A DNA stretch of 64,000 nt from a phage, in the sequence record PZ386974.1, one strand, 5' to 3'. Below the pieces are notes generated by a model, which made no database searches, was not told the origin of the DNA, and worked only from the letters and a program-made list of their open reading frames with translations. The translations under genes were made by a program, and so were the position numbers. Shown piece by piece: positions 20,302-30,555 of the stretch (within the stretch, counting starts at the first letter, position 1; each line of letters opens with the position of its first letter).

Positions 20302-23300
20302 ATGGCCGACATCAAACGTAAGTTCAGAGCCGAAGACGGTCTGGACGCCGGTGGCGACAAGATTGTTAACGTAGCATTAGCCGACCGTACAGTAGGTACT
20401 GATGGCGTAAACGTTGACTTCCTGGTACAAGAAAACACCGTTCAAGTATATGATTCTACGCGTGGATATAACAAAGGATTTGTTGTTCTTTATGACAACC
20501 GTTTATATCAAGCAATAAATGATATCGTGTCTCCTTCCGGGGCATTTAACCTTTTACAATGGCGTGCAGTTCGTACCGATGCACAATGGATAACTGTAGC
20601 TTCTGGGACTTATCAACTTTCTTCAGGTGAATCGATTTCGGTTAACACCAGTGCCGGCAATGATATGGTTTTCACGTTGCCAAATGCGCCGGTTGATGGT
20701 GACACTATTGTTTTGGCTGATATTGGTGGAAGAACCGGGGCAGTTAAAGTACAGATTAACGCGTCTGTGCAGAGTATTTTAAACTTTAGAGGCGAACAAG
20801 TTCGTACAGTTTTAATGACGCGTCCGCGTTCACAACTAGTGTTTGTGTTTAGTAATCGTTTGTGGCAGATGTATATCATTGATTACGGTAAAGAATCAAT
20901 CACTGTTACACCTGCTACACCATATCAAGCGCAAGCAAACGATTTTATTGTTCTTCGTTTTACTAGTGCAGCACCAATCAACATTACACTTCCACGTAAT
21001 GCTAACAATGGTGATATAATCAGCCTAGTTGATTTAGATAAATTAAACCCACTGTATCATACGATTATTAAAACATTTGATGATACAACGTCTATTGGCG
21101 AAGTCGGGACTCATATCGTCGAAGGTAGAACTTCTTCTGACGCGTTTTTTGTTTTTGATGCTGCAAATAGTTTATGGCGTATATGGGAAGGCGACCAGAA
21201 ATCACGTCTTCGTATTATCCGTACAGATTCAAATATTCGCCCAAATGAAGAAGTTCTTATTTTTGGTACAAATAACGCTACAGCAGAAACTATTAACCTT
21301 ACGCTTCCTACAGGAATTTTGACCGGTGACACTGTTAAAATTTCAATGAACTACATGCGTAAAGGCCAAACAGTAAAAATTAAAGCTGCCGAAGGTGATA
21401 CAATTGCTTCTTCTGTCGCATTACTTCAGTTCCCTAAACGTTCTGAATATCCACCTGATACTCAATGGGTCTCTGTTACTGAACTAGAATTCAATGGCAC
21501 TACTTCATATGTTCCTGTATTAGAATTAGCGTATATCGAAGACACCGATTCTGACACTCATTATTGGGTTGTGCAACAGAATGTCCCTACAGTAGAACGT
21601 GTTGATGCCGGAACTGATGCTACACGAGCTCGTTTAGGTGTTATTGCTCTTGCTACTCAAGCGCAAGCAAATGCTGATTTAGAGAATACTCCAGCTAAAG
21701 AAGTGGCTATTACTCCTGAAACGTTGGCAAATCGTACAGCAACTGAAGCTCGACGTGGTATCGCTAAAATTGCTACAACAGCACAAGTTAACCAGAATTC
21801 CACAGCATCATTTGTGGACGATACTGTTGTTACGCCTAAAAAACTAAATGAGCGTACAGCAACTGAAACTCGTCGTGGTCTTGCTGAAATTGCTACTCAG
21901 ACTGAAACCGATGCTGGTCTTGATGACACAACGATTATTACACCTAAGAAATTGCAGGCACGTCAGGGTTCTGAAACACTATCTGGTATAGTTAAATATG
22001 TATCAACTACTTCTGCTACTCCGGCTGCATCTCGTGGAGCTGCAGGCACTAATGTTTATAATAAAGACACAACCACGTTAACTATTTCTCCTAAAGCCCT
22101 TGACCAATATAAAGCAACTTATGCTCAACAAGGTGCAGTAATTTTAGCTGTTGATAGTGAAGTAATTGCTGGTCAATCACAAGCAGGTTATTCTCATGCT
22201 GTAGTAACTCCTGAAACACTACATAAGAAAACTTCTACTGATGGACGTATTGGTTTAATTGAAATTGCTACGCAAGCAGAAACTAATGCTGGGACTGATT
22301 ATACGCGGGCAGTAACGCCTAAGACGTTAAATGATAGGAAAGCTACGGAAGGATTATCCGGCATAGCCGAACTTGCTACGCAAGTTGAATTTGATACTGG
22401 AACTGATGATACTCGTATCTCGACTCCACTGAAAATTAAAACTCATTTTGATTCTTCTGACCGTACCAGTGTTAATTCTGATTCCGGACTTATTGAAGAA
22501 GGAACCTTGTGGAACCATTATACTCTTGATATTTCTAAAGCAAATGAAACACAACGTGGTACACTTCGCGTAGCGACTCAGGCAGAATCTAATGCAGGAA
22601 CTTTAGATGATGTTCTTATTACTCCTAAAAAGCTTTTAGGGACTAAGTCCACTGAAACGTCTGAAGGTGTAATTAAGGTTGCTACTCGGGCTGAAACTGT
22701 AACAGGAACTTCTGCTAATACTGCTGTATCGCCTAAGAATTTAAAATGGATTGTCCAGAATGAACCAACATGGGCTGCTACTACGGCAATTCGTGGATTC
22801 GTTAAAACTTCATCCGGTTCTATTACATTCGTTGGTAATGATACAGTTGGTTCAACACAACCTTTAGAATCATATGAGAAAAATAGTTATGCGGTATCAC
22901 CATATGAATTAAACCGTGTACTTGCTAACTATTTGCCATTAAAAGCAAAAGCTGCTGACTCAAATTTATTAGATGGCCTAGATTCATCTCAGTTCATTCG
23001 TAGGGACATTGCACAGACGGTTAATGGTTCACTAACCTTAACCCAACAAACGAATCTGAGTGCCCCTCTTGTATCATCTAGTACTGCTACGTTTGGTGGT
23101 TCAGTTTCGGCAAATAGTACATTAACTATTTCTAATACTGGAACGGCAACTCGTCTGATTTTTGAGAAAGGACCTCAAACTGGAACTAACCCAGTGCAGA
23201 CGATGACTATCAGAGTTTGGGGAAATCAGTTTGGTGGCGGTTCAGATACAACACGTTCTACTGTATTTGAGGTTGGTGATGAAACATCTAATCACTTTTA

Positions 23301-24177
23301 TTCTCAACGTAATAAAGATGGGAATATAGCGTTTAGCATTAATGGCACTGTAATGCCAATAAACATTAACGCTTCCGGTTTGATGAATGTTAATGGCGTT
23401 GCAACATTCGGTCGTTCAGTTACTGCTAATGGCGAATTTATCAGTAAATCATCAAATGCTTTTAGAGCAATAAATGGAAATTACGGATTCTTTATTCGTA
23501 ATGCTGGTAATGACACTTATTTTATGCTCACTGCAGCTGGTGATCAGAACGGTGGATATAATGGATTACGTCCATTATCAATTAATAATCAATCCGGTCA
23601 AGTTACAATCGGTGAAAGCTTAATTATTGCCAAAGGTGTTACTATAAATTCAGGTGGTTTAACTGTTAACTCGAGAATTCGTTCTCAGGGTACTAAAACA
23701 TCTGATTTATATACCCGTGCACCAACATCTGATACTGTAGGATTCTGGTCAATCGATATTAACGATTCAGACACTTATAACCAGTTCCCAGGTTATTTTA
23801 AAATGGTTGAAAAAACTAATGAAGTGTCTGGACTTCCATACTTAGAACGTGGTGAAGAAGTTAAATCTCCTGGTACTTTGACTCAATTTGGCAATACTCT
23901 TGATTCACTTTACCAAGATTGGATTACTTATCCAACAACTCCAGACGCACGTACCACTCGCTGGACACGTACATGGCAGAAAACTAAAAATTCTTGGTCA
24001 AGTTTTGTTCAAGTATTTGATGGCGGAAACCCTCCTCAACCTTCTGATATTGGCGCTTTACCTTCTGATAATGCAACAATCGGAAACTTGACAATACGGG
24101 ATTTCTTAAGGATTGGTAATGTCCGCGTTATTCCAGACCCTGTGAATAAATCTGTTAAATTCGAGTGGATTGAATAA
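20302..24177 (+). CDS. 34: long tail fibre proximal subunit gp34
   Basis: 1291 aa; position at head of the fibre operon; extensive collinearity with T4 gp34 as recalled. Confidence 0.93.
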   Translation: MADIKRKFRAEDGLDAGGDKIVNVALADRTVGTDGVNVDFLVQENTVQVYDSTRGYNKGFVVLYDNRLYQAINDIVSPSGAFNLLQWRAVRTDAQWITVASGTYQLSSGESISVNTSAGNDMVFTLPNAPVDGDTIVLADIGGRTGAVKVQINASVQSILNFRGEQVRTVLMTRPRSQLVFVFSNRLWQMYIIDYGKESITVTPATPYQAQANDFIVLRFTSAAPINITLPRNANNGDIISLVDLDKLNPLYHTIIKTFDDTTSIGEVGTHIVEGRTSSDAFFVFDAANSLWRIWEGDQKSRLRIIRTDSNIRPNEEVLIFGTNNATAETINLTLPTGILTGDTVKISMNYMRKGQTVKIKAAEGDTIASSVALLQFPKRSEYPPDTQWVSVTELEFNGTTSYVPVLELAYIEDTDSDTHYWVVQQNVPTVERVDAGTDATRARLGVIALATQAQANADLENTPAKEVAITPETLANRTATEARRGIAKIATTAQVNQNSTASFVDDTVVTPKKLNERTATETRRGLAEIATQTETDAGLDDTTIITPKKLQARQGSETLSGIVKYVSTTSATPAASRGAAGTNVYNKDTTTLTISPKALDQYKATYAQQGAVILAVDSEVIAGQSQAGYSHAVVTPETLHKKTSTDGRIGLIEIATQAETNAGTDYTRAVTPKTLNDRKATEGLSGIAELATQVEFDTGTDDTRISTPLKIKTHFDSSDRTSVNSDSGLIEEGTLWNHYTLDISKANETQRGTLRVATQAESNAGTLDDVLITPKKLLGTKSTETSEGVIKVATRAETVTGTSANTAVSPKNLKWIVQNEPTWAATTAIRGFVKTSSGSITFVGNDTVGSTQPLESYEKNSYAVSPYELNRVLANYLPLKAKAADSNLLDGLDSSQFIRRDIAQTVNGSLTLTQQTNLSAPLVSSSTATFGGSVSANSTLTISNTGTATRLIFEKGPQTGTNPVQTMTIRVWGNQFGGGSDTTRSTVFEVGDETSNHFYSQRNKDGNIAFSINGTVMPININASGLMNVNGVATFGRSVTANGEFISKSSNAFRAINGNYGFFIRNAGNDTYFMLTAAGDQNGGYNGLRPLSINNQSGQVTIGESLIIAKGVTINSGGLTVNSRIRSQGTKTSDLYTRAPTSDTVGFWSIDINDSDTYNQFPGYFKMVEKTNEVSGLPYLERGEEVKSPGTLTQFGNTLDSLYQDWITYPTTPDARTTRWTRTWQKTKNSWSSFVQVFDGGNPPQPSDIGALPSDNATIGNLTIRDFLRIGNVRVIPDPVNKSVKFEWIE

Positions 24178-24185
24178 GAGGTATT

Positions 24186-25313
24186 ATGGAAAAATTTATG
24201 GCTAAGTTTGGACAAGGATACGTCCAAACGCCATTTTTATCGGAAAGCAATTCGGTACGATTTAAATTAAGCATAGCGGGCTCTTGTCCGCTATCAACAT
24301 CTCCTGCCTATATTAAGTTCCAAGATAATCCACTTGGGTCCCAGGTTTTTTCTGTTGGATTAAACGTTCGTGTAATAAATCCTACAACAGGTGCAGTAGT
24401 TGAATCTAAGTCATATAATTTCTCTACTGAAAACGACGCCACGTCAAGTGCATTTGTTACTTTCATGGACACATATGCTTCAAATTTTATATTTGCTCTT
24501 GTTACTAACGCTAAAACAAACTTTCCACCCGAAGTTCTTACATGGTTTAATAAAGCCGGAAGTTCTGCTATTCCATTAGCTCAACAAGTTTTAAATATAG
24601 TGGACATTTCTTATTCTGCGTTTTATATTTCTGGTAAGAATGCTATAGCACTAGAACATATTAAGTATAGTAATAAGAAAACTTCAACCGACTATAGTAC
24701 ACCACTTGATGTTGTGTACGACACGATCGATGATATTGGTGCTACCGGCTTCCCTAGACGTACGTACGAATCGACAGACACATTTTTATCTGCTGTTGGA
24801 GGTGCTAATAATGAAATTAAAAGGATGCCTACAACGTCCGTTATTACACCTCTCACTGGGTATAAATTGAAGCCTGGAGATTTCCTTTATATGAAATTCC
24901 AACTAATGGCCGATGCCGATTTGTTAGCACAAGGGACGACACGACTTTCTATTCGTTTCTTTAAATCTCCTTCTACTTCACCTATTTCATTTAAGGATAT
25001 AAACTTTGATGGGGCTGCAGGTGAATGGAAGATATATGAAGACTACATAGAAATTCCTGCTGGTGCTGACGGGTTCACGATTTATTGTTATCGTACAGCT
25101 CCAGTCGGGCAAGGTGGATTAAGAAACGTTATATTCACTGAAGTATCATGTAATGGAAGCGTTTCAAAACCTGCCGAGTTTGGTATAAATGGTATTCGTG
25201 TAAATTATGTTTCAGAATCTTTAAGTGCCCCAGACATAATGACATTACCTACTCAATCTTCAACCGATACTGGTAAGGTATTTGGTCAAGAATTTAAAGA
25301 AGCATCAGAATAA
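24186..25313 (+). CDS. 35: long tail fibre hinge protein gp35
   Basis: 375 aa ORF immediately after gene 34; size and order as in T4. Confidence 0.88.
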   Translation: MEKFMAKFGQGYVQTPFLSESNSVRFKLSIAGSCPLSTSPAYIKFQDNPLGSQVFSVGLNVRVINPTTGAVVESKSYNFSTENDATSSAFVTFMDTYASNFIFALVTNAKTNFPPEVLTWFNKAGSSAIPLAQQVLNIVDISYSAFYISGKNAIALEHIKYSNKKTSTDYSTPLDVVYDTIDDIGATGFPRRTYESTDTFLSAVGGANNEIKRMPTTSVITPLTGYKLKPGDFLYMKFQLMADADLLAQGTTRLSIRFFKSPSTSPISFKDINFDGAAGEWKIYEDYIEIPAGADGFTIYCYRTAPVGQGGLRNVIFTEVSCNGSVSKPAEFGINGIRVNYVSESLSAPDIMTLPTQSSTDTGKVFGQEFKEASE

Positions 25314-25375: not shown

Positions 25376-26041
25376 ATGGCCGATTTAAAAGCTGGTAGTA
25401 CAACTGGCGGTGCTGTCATATGGCATCAAGGTAATTTCCCTTTAATGCCAGCAGGTGATGACGTCCTGTATAAAACGTTTAAACTCTATTCAGAATATAA
25501 TAAACCACAAGCTGCTGATAACGATTTCGTTTCTAAAGCTAATGGTGGTACGTATGCCGCTCGAGTAACATTTAATAATGGTGTGCAAGTACCTTATGCC
25601 GTAAATAACACAAATCAAAGTGGTATTTATCCTGGCAATGGCGATGCTGCTACTTTTGATACAGCAAATATTGATATTGTTTCATGGTATGGCATTGGTT
25701 TTAAATCATCACAAGGATCTGCAGGTAGAACTGTTGTTGTTAACACTCGTACTGGTGATATCAGCACTAAAGGTGGTATTTATGCAACTGGTCCTGTCCG
25801 TTCTAATGCTACTGCTCCGGTTGCAGCAAATGATCTCACAAGAAAAGATTATGTTGATGGACGAATAAATATTGTTACGGATAACGCAAATTCCCGTGTA
25901 TTGCGTAAAGGCGATACCATGACTGGTACTTTAACAGCACCAAACTTTTTCTCACAGAATCCGGCGTCTGAGGCTAATCATGTTCCTCGTTTCGACCAGA
26001 TTGTAATTAAAGATTCTGTTCAAGATTTCGGCTATTATTAA
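25376..26041 (+). CDS. 36: long tail fibre distal connector gp36
   Basis: 221 aa, same length as T4 gp36; operon position. Confidence 0.88.
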
Positions 26042-26049
26042 GAGGACTT

Positions 26050-29000
26050 ATGGCTACATTAAAACAGATACAATTTAAAAGAAGCAAAGTAGCAGGAGTT
26101 AATCCTACTGCAGCACAATTAGCCGAAGGCGAATTAGCGATAAACTTAAAAGATCGAACTCTTTTTACTAAAGATGACCTCGGTAATATTATTAGCCTAG
26201 GCTTTGCTAAGGGTGGGGATATTAACGGTAATGTAACTCAAAATGGTGATTATTTACAAAACGGCACATTTAACCTCAATGGAAATCAGTTTGTTTATGC
26301 AGGAAAATACATTGAATTTTTACCTAAAACCACTGGAAATGGCGCTTGGGCTAACCAACATTCGAATAAAGCCCCTATCTTTACAGATTTGAGTTCAACT
26401 ACTTCTATTTCAGAATACCACCCTTTGATTAAACAACGCTATAAAGATGGAACTTTTTCTGCTGGTACATTAGTAAACGAAGGTAGTTTTAAATTCCATT
26501 ATATTGATGAAACCGGGACTTCAAAATACTGGACTTTTAATCGAAACGGTAATTTTCAAGTTGATTCTGGAAGTTTATTAGTATCTAATGGATATTTAGT
26601 TACTCAAAGTAATATTGAAACTAAAGCTGGTTCTTTAATTGGTCCTAAAGTTATTACCAAAAATATCAATGTGAGCACTAAATCTTGGGGCACTAATATT
26701 GATACTGCATATGATTTAGTTTCATTACCGACTTGGCACTATACTCCAACCGAAACAGATTTGGATACTAATGGTATAAACTACCTTCGTAAATTCCGCG
26801 GACATGTTTCTTCTGCTATTTTCCATGAAGTTGCTGATGCTCGTTCAGGTAAACCACAGAATATTTCGTATTGGACGGGACGTAATGCTGAAGTTTATCA
26901 ATGGTCTTATACCACAGATGGGCGTATGTCTGTTGCTAATTCGATAGGTATAGGTCTTGCTGATGTTGGTGACCAAGGACGTTATCCATTGGTTTCGTTT
27001 GGTAAAGGTATTGCAATTGGTGACAATGATACTGGTATTAAATGGGTTCGTGACGGGGTTATCGATTTAGTTGCGAATGGTATTTCTGCCGGCACTATTC
27101 TTAATAACGGCATTAACAGTACTAAAAAATTGATGGTTGGTTATAGTCGAGATTCTGGTTCTACTTGGGATTACCCAAATAACAACCAAGCAATGTTTAC
27201 TGCGCGTACCGATGTTGATGGTAATAATAACGGTGACGGTCAGACTCATATTGGTTATAGCAGCAATGCCAAGATGTATCACTATTTCCGTGGCACTGGT
27301 CGTATGTCCGTTAGTATGGGCGATGGACTTCTTGTTGAGCCTGGCATTTTAGATATTAAAACTGGTTCAAATTCGTTAAATTTGCGTGCTGATGGTACCA
27401 TCGCTTCCGTTCAAACGTTAAAACTTAATAATGGATTATATTTTAATGGCGATGGAACTAATGCTTCTCTAGTTTTTAAAGCAGCTTCAGGTATTGATGG
27501 CACTAAGCAAATCATGTGGGAAGGCGGTACTCGAGCAGGTCAGAATAAGAGTTATGTAACGGCTAAAGCATGGGGTAATTCATTTAATGCCACTGGTGAT
27601 AAATCTCGTGAAACTGTATTTGAAGTTAGTGACGGGCATGGATACCATTTTTATTCTCAACGTGTAGCTCCTGCGCCTGGTTCTACCGTCGGACCTATTC
27701 AATTTCGAGTTAATGGTGGTTTATTAACTTCAGGTAGTATTGTTACTTCTGGTTCTATTACAACTGAATCTTCTTTAAGTGTTAATAATGGCATGTCAGT
27801 AAATGGACAAGCTAAATTCGGTGGAACTGCTGATGCATTAAGAATTTGGAATGCTGAATACGGTGCTATTTTCCGTCGTTCAGAGGCGGCATTGCATATT
27901 ATTCCAACTCCTAAAGATGCAGGTGAATCTGGCGGAATAAGTAATCTTCGCCCATTAAGTATCAGCCTTAATAATGGTATGGTGCAAATGCGTCATTCTG
28001 TCACGTTAGGTGACGATGGTGCTGGCGGTAATATGATTACAGTGGACAATGATAACAAACTTGTTGTTGTTACTAGTAATAGTCGCATTTCTCCTAATTT
28101 CAGAATGCAGATAGGTCAGTCGGCATACATTGATGCAGAATGTACTGATAGAGCACGTCCGGCCGGAGCGGGTTCTTTTGCTTCCCAAAATAATGAAAAT
28201 GTACGTGCGCCGTTCTATATGAATATTGATAGAACTGATACTAGTACATATGTTCCTATTTTGAAACAACGATATGTTCAAGGAAATAGCTGTTATTCTT
28301 TAGGAACTCTAATTAATGGTGGTAACTTTAGAGTTCATTATCATGAAGGTGGTGATAATGATTCGACGGGCCCTTTAATTAAGGACTTCGGGTGGGAATT
28401 CAATAGAACCGGTGATTTTATTTCCCCTGGTAAATTAGGCGCTGGTACGGTTCGTATTGGTACTGACGGTAACATCACAGGTGGTTCTGGTAATTTTGCC
28501 AACTTAAATAGTACAATTGAATCACTTAAAACTGATATTGTCTCAAGTTATCCAATTGGTGCTCCGATTCCATGGCCTACTGATACACCTCCTGAAGGTT
28601 ATGCCATAATGGAAGGTCAAACATTTGATGCTGGCTTGTATCCTAAGTTAGCTGCGGTGTATCCTTCCGGCTCTCTGCCTGATATGCGTGGTCAAACTAT
28701 CAAGGGTAAACCATCTGGGCGTGCTGTATTGAGTACAGAAGCAGACGGTGTTAAGTCACATAGCCATAGTGCAAGTGCATCAAGCACAGATTTGGGTACT
28801 AAGACCACTTCTAGTTTTGATTACGGTAGCAAAACGACTTCAAGCTTTGATTATGGTACTAAGACCAGTAATACCACTGGCAACCATAACCATACAGTGA
28901 GTGGTAATACTAGTTCCGCAGGAGCTCACCACCACGCGCGTTCAGGTCCTCAGGTACAAGGCGGCATACCCACTAGCGTATTCTATGATGGATACAATAG

Positions 29001-29304
29001 TGCTGGTCCAAACGGCAACGCTAAATTCACTGCAACCGTGAGCGGTGCTACTGCATCGTCGAATATGGCCAAAACTTCTTCAGACGGTGCCCACACCCAT
29101 AGTTGGTCAGGAACTACTAGCTCTACGGGTAACCACGCGCATACTGTAGGTATCGGTGCCCATAGCCATTCGGTCGGTATTGGTGCTCATACCCACACGG
29201 TAGCTATTGGTTCGCACGGTCATACTATCACTGTAAATAGTACAGGAAATACAGAAAACACAGTTAAAAACGTTGCTTTTAACTATATCGTTCGTTTAGC
29301 ATAA
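26050..29304 (+). CDS. 37: long tail fibre distal subunit gp37 (receptor-binding tip)
   Basis: 1084 aa; N-terminal region shares repeats with gp34; C-terminus has tandem [11 protein letters not shown] repeats and seven or more HxH boxes (HSHS, NHNH, AHHH, HTHS, NHAH, HSHS, HTHT, HGH). Confidence 0.92.
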
Positions 29305-29310
29305 GGAGAA

Positions 29311-29329
29311 GGGACCTCAGTCCCTTTTT
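29311..29329 (+). terminator. hairpin GGGAC-CUCA-GUCCC plus U5 between genes 37 and 38
   Basis: 5-bp stem, U-run; lies between the SD-like AAGGAG (29303..29308) and the gene 38 AUG. Confidence 0.55.
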
Positions 29330-29334
29330 ATAAT

Positions 29335-29886
29335 ATGAAACTCTATCATTATTATTTTGACACTAAAGAATTTTACAAAGAAGAAAATTATAAACCATTA
29401 AAAGGCGTAGGATTTCCGGCTCATTCGACACCAAAAAAACCTTTAGACCCTAAAGAAGGCTATGCTGTTATATTTGATGAACGCGAACAAGAATGGGTAT
29501 ATGTTGAAGACCATCGTGGAAAAACGGTATGGACTTATGATAAGCAAAAAATTGTTATTGACACTCCAGGTGCTCTTCAAAATGTTACTACAGAAGAACC
29601 TGGTGAATTTGACATTTGGACCGACGACGGGTGGAAGGAAGATGAAGCATATAAACGTGTAGTTCAACGTGATAAGAAAATTCATGAACTCTATAAATTA
29701 TTCAGTGTTTTAAGTTCTCTTATTGATGCAGAGGTTGCTAATAGAGAAGAAAAACGAAAATTTAAAGAGCTCAAAAAATTCTTTGCCCTTTTAGAAAAAC
29801 ATGAACATCTTGGCGGCGAATTCCCTAAATTCCCTGACCTTGAAAGCAAATCACTTGTTAAACGAATTATAAATATCTTTAAGTAA
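29335..29886 (+). CDS. 38: tail fibre assembly chaperone gp38 (T4-type)
   Basis: 183 aa, same length as T4 gp38 and collinear with it as recalled (MKLYHYYFDTKEFYKEENYKP...). Confidence 0.88.
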   Translation: MKLYHYYFDTKEFYKEENYKPLKGVGFPAHSTPKKPLDPKEGYAVIFDEREQEWVYVEDHRGKTVWTYDKQKIVIDTPGALQNVTTEEPGEFDIWTDDGWKEDEAYKRVVQRDKKIHELYKLFSVLSSLIDAEVANREEKRKFKELKKFFALLEKHEHLGGEFPKFPDLESKSLVKRIINIFK

Positions 29887-29895
29887 GGAGGTATT

Positions 29896-30555
29896 ATGGC
29901 AACACCAAAAGTGTCATTTTCGCCTAGTGATATTCTATTTGGGTTGCTAGATCGTATTTTCAAAGATAACGCTACTGGAAAGGTTTTAATGTCCCGAGTA
30001 GCGGTAATTATTCTTTTGTTCCTAATGGCACTAATATGGTACAAAGGAAGTATTTTGCTGGATTATTATGTAAGAGCTAAGTATGATACTTATACTGAAA
30101 TAATCCAAAAAGAACGAGCTTTACGTTTTGAATCTGCGGCTCTAGAACAACTGCAAATAGTTCATATCTCATCTGGTGCAGATTTTAGTGCTGTGTATTC
30201 TTTCAGACCTAAAAACTTAAATTATTTTGTCGACCTTATAGCTTATGAAGGCAAACTACCTAGCACAATTTCTGAAAAGTCCCTTGGCGGATTCCCGGTG
30301 GATAAAACGGCCAATGAATATATAATTCATTTAAGCGGCCGTCATTTCTCATCTAAATCAGAATTTGCATTTTTGCCTACAAAATCTAAGACTGCCGAAC
30401 TTTCTTATATGTATAGCTGTCCATACTTTAATTTGGATAACATCTATGCTGGAACTGTGACGATGTATTGGTATAAGGGGAATAATATACTTGAGGAGGA
30501 CCGCTTAGCGGCTATATGCAACCAAGCGGTCCGAATACTAGGAAGGGCTAAATAA
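29896..30555 (+). CDS. t: holin T
   Basis: 219 aa; single N-terminal TM helix and large periplasmic domain; matches T4 holin T; SD AAGGAGG upstream. Confidence 0.9.
   Translation: MATPKVSFSPSDILFGLLDRIFKDNATGKVLMSRVAVIILLFLMALIWYKGSILLDYYVRAKYDTYTEIIQKERALRFESAALEQLQIVHISSGADFSAVYSFRPKNLNYFVDLIAYEGKLPSTISEKSLGGFPVDKTANEYIIHLSGRHFSSKSEFAFLPTKSKTAELSYMYSCPYFNLDNIYAGTVTMYWYKGNNILEEDRLAAICNQAVRILGRAK

Follow-up and report, generated by a model that had tools for sequence, protein, structure and literature searches.

The window analysed here is a 64,000-nucleotide stretch of phage DNA (PZ386974.1) that carries a long tail fibre cluster in the order 34-35-36-37-38-t, as in T4, with members of the gp36 and holin T families flanking genes 37 and 38. 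Gene 37 (26050..29304, plus strand) is an ORF of 1084 codons plus a stop codon that codes for the distal half-fibre of the long tail fibre. Gene 38 follows on the same strand (29335..29886) and codes for a T4-type tail-fibre assembly chaperone of 183 amino acids that matches the Pfam family Caudo_TAP. Between the two genes, the sequence can be read as a hairpin, GGGAC-CTCA-GTCCC, followed by TTTTT (29311..29329, plus strand). A simple terminator scan did not list this hairpin; records of related phages annotate a 'terminator' at the matching position.

Over its full length, gp37 is 52% identical to T4 gp37. The original prediction placed the ORF about 58 residues beyond the length of the T4 protein, and the comparison gives exactly this excess (1084 versus 1026 aa). 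From the DMRG motif to the C-terminus the window protein has 207 aa and T4 gp37 has 170, a difference of 37 residues that is composed of steps of +10, +15, +3 and +9, and the remaining 21 residues reflect net indels farther upstream. Segment-wise comparison with relatives reveals that known alleles are combined in gp37 as a mosaic. This holds for the shaft upstream of the tip, where residues 61-480 share 95% identity with phi25-307 and residues 661-831 just 27% with p000v. The best full-length DNA match to gene 37 is 91%, and the exact 1084-aa protein was not found in a collection of 15 billion proteins. The exact gp38 protein occurs in Mosigvirus records such as vB_EcoM_G53.

A T4-type receptor-binding module at the end of gp37

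The region 28740-29304 is very likely to code for the C-terminal receptor-binding module, comprising a D10 collar and a D11 needle, of a T4-type gp37 from a Mosigvirus-like phage. We place the probability of this assignment, which is made from sequence comparison, at about 0.85. The main evidence is a phmmer match (E 1.3e-90) between gp37 residues 807-1084 and chain residues 2-242 of PDB 2XGF, the crystallised fragment of T4 gp37 (residues 785-1026). Domain limits published for D10 and D11 of T4 (PMC6957217; Islam et al. 2019) were carried over to the window protein through pairwise alignment.

The first part of the D10 collar domain aligns to 2XGF and occupies 28543..28755 (plus strand, as for all parts of the module; residues 832-902, T4 811-881), and residues 837-884 match the phage tail collar family Collar (PF07484, E 9e-11). 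The descending strand of the D11 stem follows at 28756..28935 (residues 903-962, T4 882-931 plus 10 aa) and carries HxH boxes at residues 904, 946 and 960. Next is the tip or head subdomain (28936..29073, residues 963-1008), the predicted receptor-contact surface, which has 46 aa versus 28 in T4 (932-959). The ascending strand of the stem (29074..29250, residues 1009-1067, T4 960-1009 plus 9 aa) adds HxH boxes at 1015, 1029, 1038, 1047 and 1056. The chain then returns to the collar with the C-terminal part of D10 (29251..29301, residues 1068-1084). These last 17 residues, which end in NYIVRLA, fall in columns that are invariant across the family, and they are 94% identical to T4 and 100% identical to p000v, JS09 and phi25-307. 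Taken as a whole, the C-terminus differs from that of T4 gp37; identity between the two would have refuted the original prediction.

The last 188 residues of gp37 (897-1084, approximately nucleotides 28738..29304) contain all of the tandem repeats and HxH boxes that the original prediction listed for the final ~190 residues, including AHHHA, AHTHS, NHAHT, AHSHS, AHTHT and SHGHT. The predicted start at 28740 falls 2 nucleotides into codon 897, which is of no consequence. The eight HxH boxes are divided between the descending (three) and ascending (five) strands. Such a number would not be expected from composition, given that 20000 shuffles of this segment, which has 17 His in 188 aa, averaged 1.4 HxH, peaked at 7 and never attained 8. 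The same prediction had likened the region to the metal-coordinating fibre tip of T4, and this comparison is borne out by the homology to 2XGF and by the correspondence of the HxH boxes to the iron-binding motifs of the needle.

The D11 domain of T4 has seven HxH boxes and seven irons (PMC6957217; PMC11705849). By homology to that domain, the tip of the window protein would be a trimeric fold in which each chain descends, builds the distal tip subdomain and returns upward, such that three chains would form a six-stranded antiparallel stem. Each triplet of HxH boxes would coordinate a single metal ion (iron in the case of T4), and folding would depend on the neighbouring gp38 chaperone. Relative to T4, the stem appears to have one more rung, formed by a 10-aa unit going down and a 9-aa HxH-V-G-I-G unit going up. 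We therefore predict eight metal sites rather than the seven of T4, and we infer a stem approximately 3 nm longer. For the last 290 residues, AlphaFold2 run on the monomer with a 29-sequence alignment gave a model with a pLDDT of 49.7 and a pTM of 0.18, which is uninformative for an obligate intertwined trimer. Homology and covariation are therefore the basis for predicting an eighth metal site and the pairing of the additional units between strands.

In the arrangement that predominates in the T4 superfamily (PMC3157838), exemplified by T2, T6 and S16, gp37 has its C-terminus removed or capped, and host recognition falls to gp38 as a separate adhesin. A gp38 of this type, expected to be some 260 aa long, would contain hypervariable segments as well as glycine-rich motifs, whereas the protein encoded in the window has 183 aa, equal in length to T4 gp38 and 68% identical to it, and matches Caudo_TAP and no adhesin family. 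Its identity is 96-97% to the gp38 proteins of p000v, JS09 and phi25-307 and 66% to that of Bas44. In addition, gp37 retains the full D10/D11 module through to its conserved terminus, and Pfam reports only Collar for gp37, with no S74 peptidase-type C-terminus. A system of the T2, T6 and S16 type is rejected because gp38 is of the chaperone type, and we consider it scarcely credible for this phage. Since gp38 is not such an adhesin, gp37 itself should carry the adhesin, which agrees with the roles originally proposed for the two proteins.

The gp37 tip is of an already known kind, and its layout and exact tip subdomain are present in sequenced phages. It resembles the T4 gp37 tip in its collar domain, in a stem lined with HxH boxes and in its conserved C-terminus, and the setting agrees as well, with a gp38 chaperone gene next door and the same order of genes. 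The Mosigvirus p000v (AYN56436.1), JS09 and phi25-307 share the 207-aa layout (42,14,55,14,9,9,9), and the 214-aa tail of the window protein also matches phiEC1 without gaps. Identity over the tail is 97.7% for p000v and phiEC1, 95.8% for JS09 and 93.5% for phi25-307. The BASEL phages Bas44 (AdolfPortmann, QXV75360.1) and Bas41 (FriedrichZschokke), which unlike the window phage belong to the genus Tequatrovirus, match the same tail gap-free at 88% identity. For Bas44, whose gp37 is annotated as 'long tail fiber distal subunit with adhesin domain' and lies beside a gp38 chaperonin, we confirmed directly that the layout and repeat number are those of the window. The tip is a common variant, for which the sequence predicts a somewhat longer metal-stapled shaft and an end knob unlike that of T4. 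For the window itself this has little significance, as the adhesin has been studied in depth, the allele is routine, and experimental characterisation exists for phages that share its layout.

Tandem repeats and paired modules of the stem

The descending strand of the stem includes three tandem 10-aa units (28798..28887, plus strand), of which two are full copies of DYG-xKTTSSF and one is degenerate. Only two such units, a full one and a degenerate one, occur in T4. At the DNA level the repeat spans 3 x 30 nucleotides (28789-28878) in a register slightly shifted from that of the protein units, and its second and third copies are 73% and 70% identical to the first.

A second repeat of 3 x 27 nucleotides (29140-29220), with copies 78% and 67% identical to the first, is located in the ascending strand. 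It was not singled out by the original prediction, and TRF too reports it (29146-29211). Relative to T4, this strand has one additional 9-aa His box (a term that we did not find in the literature searched), with the sequence HTVGIGAHS.

It had been proposed that the copy number of the 10-aa repeat changes host range. In this scenario the number of units would vary readily, by slippage or unequal crossing-over, and alter the recognition of the receptor, and there are some observations in its favour. One unit separates T4 from the window phage, and the count of stem rungs among natural homologues ranges from one to six. Laboratory host-range mutants of T4 have reportedly arisen via duplications within gp37 (Tetart et al. 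1996, J Mol Biol 258:726; cited in PMC3157838 and PMC5221442), in a study whose title states that duplicating a small domain of gp37 expands the host range of T4, and some effect of the repeat on host range is therefore conceivable.

However, the sequences of the repeat copies argue against such variability. Paralogous copies of the 30-nucleotide repeat are only 60-73% identical in DNA, with mostly synonymous differences, whereas the identity between orthologous copies is 93-100% for p000v, JS09 and phi25-307 and 73-83% for Bas44. All four of these relatives, which were checked directly, have the same 207-aa layout and repeat number. Moreover, in a tblastn search with the 214-aa tail, nearly all of the best 60 of 300 matching records aligned gap-free at 88-98% identity. 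Judged from these comparisons, the duplication is old and fixed, and the region is not a variable repeat. A slippage-prone repeat of the labile contingency type, for which near-identical DNA copies and a copy number that varies between close relatives would be anticipated, is rejected because the copies have diverged and are orthologously conserved.

A broader comparison, covering 166 distinct complete homologous tips with about 12 distinct layouts, reveals a strict relationship between the two strands. When n9 is the number of 9-aa His-box intervals in a tip, the first two HxH boxes are spaced by d1 = 12 + 10 x n9 residues in 165 of the 166 tips, a fraction that overstates the number of independent events because the homologues are related by descent. 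Spacings of 22, 32, 42, 52, 62 and 72 residues were seen with one, two, three, four, five and six intervals, respectively. The tip is preceded and followed by equal numbers of 14-aa HxH modules in every case (166/166). The interval that spans it is unconstrained and ranges from 32 to 70 residues in the same set. By these sequence criteria, the repeat behaves like a structural module for length.

The same rule is obeyed by side tail fibres from E. coli prophages, lambdoid ones among them (the lambda Stf / ORF314 family), a group that has been described as the 'T4- and lambda-based RBP family' (PMC9659904). These proteins share the last ~215-aa module, with its conserved flanks and variable tip. 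In them the module is carried on unrelated and much shorter N-terminal fibres that are served by Tfa-type chaperones, and many have two rungs or lack the 14-aa modules.

A tentative proposal, which we regard as possible but doubtful, is that in the T4 gp37 / lambda Stf tip family the stem serves as a modular ruler whose length changes only through obligately paired modules. One kind of module would consist of a 10-aa His-free descending unit together with a 9-aa ascending His box, and the other would consist of one 14-aa HxH unit per strand. Under this reading, gp37 of the window would be an example with three rungs and one 14-aa module. If the proposal is correct, the length of the stem might suit the depth of the surface layer, such as O-antigen or capsule, that the tip must cross. 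Since no one-sided change was seen, changes in length would occur through exchange of whole D11 cassettes and not by slippage. The strict pairing also yields, as a by-product, a design rule for lengthening, shortening or grafting tips, namely that both partners should be changed together.

The pairing also bears on the proposal that copy number determines host range. The unit count tracks the His-box count on the opposite strand in 165/166 tips, and therefore one-sided change is not seen in nature. Furthermore, T4, AV117, AV118 and Bas44, which have two or three rungs and very different tips, all use OmpC, and the mapped specificity mutations sit in the tip subdomain and not in the stem where the repeat is located. 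The emphasis on repeat copy number was probably misplaced, and we consider its role as a host-range determinant in its own right to be quite improbable.

The tip subdomain and the predicted receptor

Specificity most likely resides in the tip subdomain (residues 963-1008) and not in the repeat, and it is the tip that would touch the receptor. All receptor-contact mutations of T4 map to this subdomain (PMC5221442, PMC6957217), and a host-range substitution in Bas44, A978D, also lies within it (PMC12421954). The position of A978D aligns with G971 of the window protein, inside the tip. The subdomain is 100% identical to that of p000v, 91% identical to that of JS09 and 73% identical to that of Bas44. 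Relative to T4 it is unrelated (15% identity) and 18 aa larger, and the mapped receptor-contact residues of T4 (T939, V941, G943, Y949, Y953 and A955) are unconserved. This larger and unrelated tip, which the original prediction did not single out, is the real difference from T4 where specificity is concerned.

The primary receptor is most likely the porin OmpC, and after contact with OmpC the short tail fibres would bind the LPS core. OmpC is the primary receptor of both Bas41 and Bas44 (BASEL S5 table), which share the layout and tip family of the window protein and whose tips are 73% identical to its own, and Bas44 is strictly porin-dependent (PMC12421954). In a large screen, OmpC was assigned to 17 Straboviridae phages, every one of which has a Gp37 C-terminal adhesin domain, with tips that are highly variable. 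AV117 and AV118 were considered as further proxies. They are OmpC-dependent and have the same three-rung stem, but their tips are different and shorter, and thus our prediction of OmpC rests on Bas41, Bas44 and the class-wide association.

Alternatively, the primary receptor bound by the tip might be a sugar of the LPS core or an outer-membrane protein other than OmpC. The low identity of the tip subdomain to T4 is compatible with this possibility, as is the fact that the function-critical residues of T4, the histidines excepted, cannot be aligned with confidence. There are also precedents, in that LPS glucose is used by the family members phiNP ORF6 and, on E. coli B, T4, and AV116 and AV122 are possibly LPS-dependent. 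Even Bas44, the closest phage with a measured receptor, has a tip just 73% identical to that of the window. However, this same phage is strictly porin-dependent, Bas41 and Bas44 are scored as OmpC-dependent with 88% identity over the 214-aa tail, and the assignment of OmpC in the screen extended to all 17 phages in spite of their tip variation. A receptor other than OmpC is therefore unlikely.

For practical use, OmpC would be taken as the predicted primary receptor and the LPS core as the target of the short fibres, and residues 963-1008 constitute the segment for swaps or mutations in host-range engineering.

The gp37 locus and its receptor-binding module

The gp37 gene (26050..29304, + strand) is an ORF of 1084 aa that codes for the distal half-fibre of the long tail fibre. 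Its neighbours are gp34 (20302..24177), gp35 (24186..25313), and gp36 (25376..26041; Pfam Phage_T4_gp36), with a 183-aa protein (29335..29886) directly after gp37, followed by holin T (29896..30555). This gene order is that of T4. The 183-aa protein is 68% identical and equal in length to the T4 gp38 chaperone and matches Caudo_TAP, in agreement with the original prediction that it is a T4-type chaperone. Mosigvirus genomes, HX01, PNJ-6, SHSML-52-1 and AV110 among them, are 94-96% identical to the window over 24 kb, and none of the database records searched is identical to it.

The C-terminal 278 residues of gp37 align with the crystallised T4 tip (PDB 2XGF, E 1.3e-90), and the identification as a T4-type fibre tip was right. 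The last 188 residues also read as originally described: SHSHS, then a 35-residue stretch, then AHHH, AHTHS, NHAHT, AHSHS, AHTHT and SHGHT. The eight HxH motifs (residues 904, 946, 960, 1015, 1029, 1038, 1047 and 1056) account for all but one of the 17 histidines in this region, and 20000 shuffles of the same residues gave a mean of 1.4 motifs and a maximum of 7. In the AHHH box, an ordinary HxH, the middle position happens to be filled by His. The closest relatives carry HQH or HRH where the third His box (residues 960-962, window 28927..28935) reads HHH; T4 carries HSH. The extra histidine occupies a variable middle position directly ahead of the tip.

Domain limits were carried over via alignments from T4, where the D10 collar spans 811-881 and 1010-1026, the D11 stem 882-931 and 960-1009, and the D11 tip 932-959 (Islam et al. 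2019, PMC6957217). In the window protein, the collar begins with residues 832-902 (window 28543-28755) and is followed by the descending stem (903-962; 28756-28935), the tip (963-1008; 28936-29073), the ascending stem (1009-1067; 29074-29250), and the C-terminal part of the collar (1068-1084; 29251-29301). The protein was expected to be about 58 residues longer than its T4 counterpart, and the difference is exactly 58; the receptor-binding module is 37 residues longer. Relative to T4, the descending stem gains 10 residues in the form of a second 10-aa unit, the ascending stem gains 9 as an additional His box (HTVGIGAHS), and the tip has 46 residues rather than 28 (+18). The spacings between successive HxH motifs, or layout, are (42,14,55,14,9,9,9) in the window and (32,14,37,14,9,9) in T4.

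T4 D11 contains seven HxH motifs and its needle holds seven iron atoms along its length (PMC6957217; PMC11705849), or one HxH triplet per metal. By this analogy, the boxes are probable metal-binding motifs, as originally read, and the eight motifs of the window needle would provide eight metal sites.

Pairing of modules in the stem

A total of 266 homologues were gathered from a word-indexed search (120) and from cluster representatives in a full HMMER scan (150), a few of which overlapped with the first set. These yielded 166 distinct complete tips, for which spacings between successive HxH motifs were recorded. On the descending strand, the distance between the first two HxH motifs (d1) follows the rule 12 + 10 x n9 in 165 of 166 tips, n9 being the count of 9-residue intervals that separate the C-terminal His boxes of the ascending strand. 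The tips are related by descent rather than independent events and represent about 12 different layouts, all compliant with the rule. One tip has a d1 of 22 with n9 of 1, 85 have 32 with 2, 71 have 41-42 with 3, five have 52 with 4, one has 62 with 5, and two have 72-73 with 6. The lone exception has lost one HxH. In addition, all 166 have equal numbers of 14-residue HxH modules on either side of the tip (0/0 in 79, 1/1 in 85 and 2/2 in 2), and the HxH interval that spans the tip ranges freely between 32 and 70 residues.

By these regularities, one half of a stem rung is supplied by the 10-aa FDYG unit and the other by a 9-aa His box of the return strand. If an extended strand advances about 3.3 A per residue, each rung would lengthen the stem by about 3 nm. 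No statement of the paired-module rule was found in the literature searched, a scope outside which the original structure paper lies, and this family-wide rule may be the sole part of the analysis of greater worth.

Extreme stem variants (homologues P0112, P0220, P0131 and P0232) all keep the pairing rule. Six or five 10+9 rungs occur in some of them, together with three extra SSFDY-STKTTN-xPDLG-type units, and one has a single rung yet two 14+14 modules. The database names of seven proteins that carry the tip (P0043, P0046, P0047, P0050, P0056, P0057 and P0061) are terminase large subunit, short-chain fatty acid transporter, tape measure protein or ClpP-like protease; fused or mis-named ORFs on E. 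coli prophage contigs are the probable explanation.

Repeat copy number, tip and receptor

At the DNA level, the 10-aa units form a 30-nt repeat of three copies (28789-28878), of which the later two share 73% and 70% identity with the first; mutual identities are 60-73% and the differences are mostly synonymous. A 27-nt repeat, also of three units (29140-29220; 78% and 67%), had not been singled out previously. Each 30-nt copy matches its orthologue at 93-100% identity in the Mosigvirus relatives p000v, JS09 and phi25-307 and at 73-83% in the Tequatrovirus phage Bas44, and all four share the layout of the window. The 60 best tblastn matches to the 214-aa tail are nearly all gap-free, at 88-98% identity. 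The diverged copies, orthologue identity, constant layout and gap-free matches rule out a labile repeat copy number, and the duplication of the 10-aa unit is old and fixed.

The original prediction proposed that repeat copy number alters host range. The comparative data do not support the proposal, as copy number is fixed among relatives and specificity mutations map to the tip. Such an effect is unlikely but may exist, given that Tetart et al. 1996 reportedly saw host range expand through duplications within gp37. The C-terminus differs from that of T4, with 61% identity in the stem strands and 15% in the tip. The corresponding values for stem and tip are 93-98% and 100% in p000v, 94-96% and 91% in JS09, 91-96% and 84% in phi25-307, and 91-93% and 73% in Bas44.

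All mapped receptor mutations of T4 lie within the tip subdomain (PMC5221442, PMC6957217); the Nik, Nib and Arl mutants affect T939, V941, G943, Y953 and A955 (PMC5221442), and an alanine scan covered 929-959 (PMC6957217). The BASEL phages Bas41 and Bas44, which have the layout of the window, are listed in the BASEL S5 table as dependent on OmpC, and their terminal receptor is given there as the deep LPS core. Unlike T4, Bas44 depends strictly on porin, and its adaptation to OmpK36 variants yielded gp37 A978D (PMC12421954). This residue aligns with G971 of the window, inside a 15-residue stretch inserted relative to T4. Phages AV117 and AV118, whose OmpC dependence was shown by experiment (PMC10844046), have a three-rung stem like that of the window and different, shorter tips. 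A 2026 preprint found Gp37 C-terminal adhesin domains, with extensive tip-subdomain variation, in 17 of 17 OmpC-assigned Straboviridae phages. Taken together, these analogies point to OmpC as the likely primary receptor of the window phage and to the tip, not the stem repeat, as the part that probably decides which OmpC variants the phage recognises. Naming gp37 itself as the adhesin was correct.

Mosaic origin and neighbouring features

The gp37 tip finding is already known. By sequence, the tip belongs to the T4 gp37/lambda Stf tip family (PMC9659904), all of whose sequence-testable defining features are present. Its layout and exact tip are in GenBank already, and in BASEL the Bas44 protein bears the annotation 'long tail fiber distal subunit with adhesin domain'. 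The full-length protein is a new mosaic: residues 61-480 match phi25-307 at 95% identity and p000v and JS09 at 38-69%, residues 661-831 match JS09, Bas44 and phi25-307 at 87% and p000v at 27%, and the tip equals that of p000v. A 15-billion-protein collection did not contain the exact gp37 protein, and the exact gp38 protein was found there in several Mosigvirus phages. Such a mosaic reflects the recombinational shuffling that is usual for fibre genes (PMC3157838).

The 30-nt gap between genes 37 and 38 carries a hairpin visible by eye (GGGAC-CTCA-GTCCC followed by TTTTT; 29311..29329). In several related phage records the site carries a terminator annotation, and a simple consensus terminator scan did not list it. 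ARAGORN identified zero tRNA genes in the whole 64 kb. Residues 58-129 of the gp35 hinge protein match Pfam ILEI (interleukin-like EMT inducer, PF15711; E 7.9e-7), a family unexpected for a phage fibre hinge, with a score of 29.9 bits that is barely over the 27-bit cutoff. Finally, residues 483-653 of the gp37 shaft (window 27496..28008) match solved gp34 structures from the proximal half-fibre (PDB 5NXF and 4UXE, E ~1e-14), and this segment is a repeat module common to both half-fibres.
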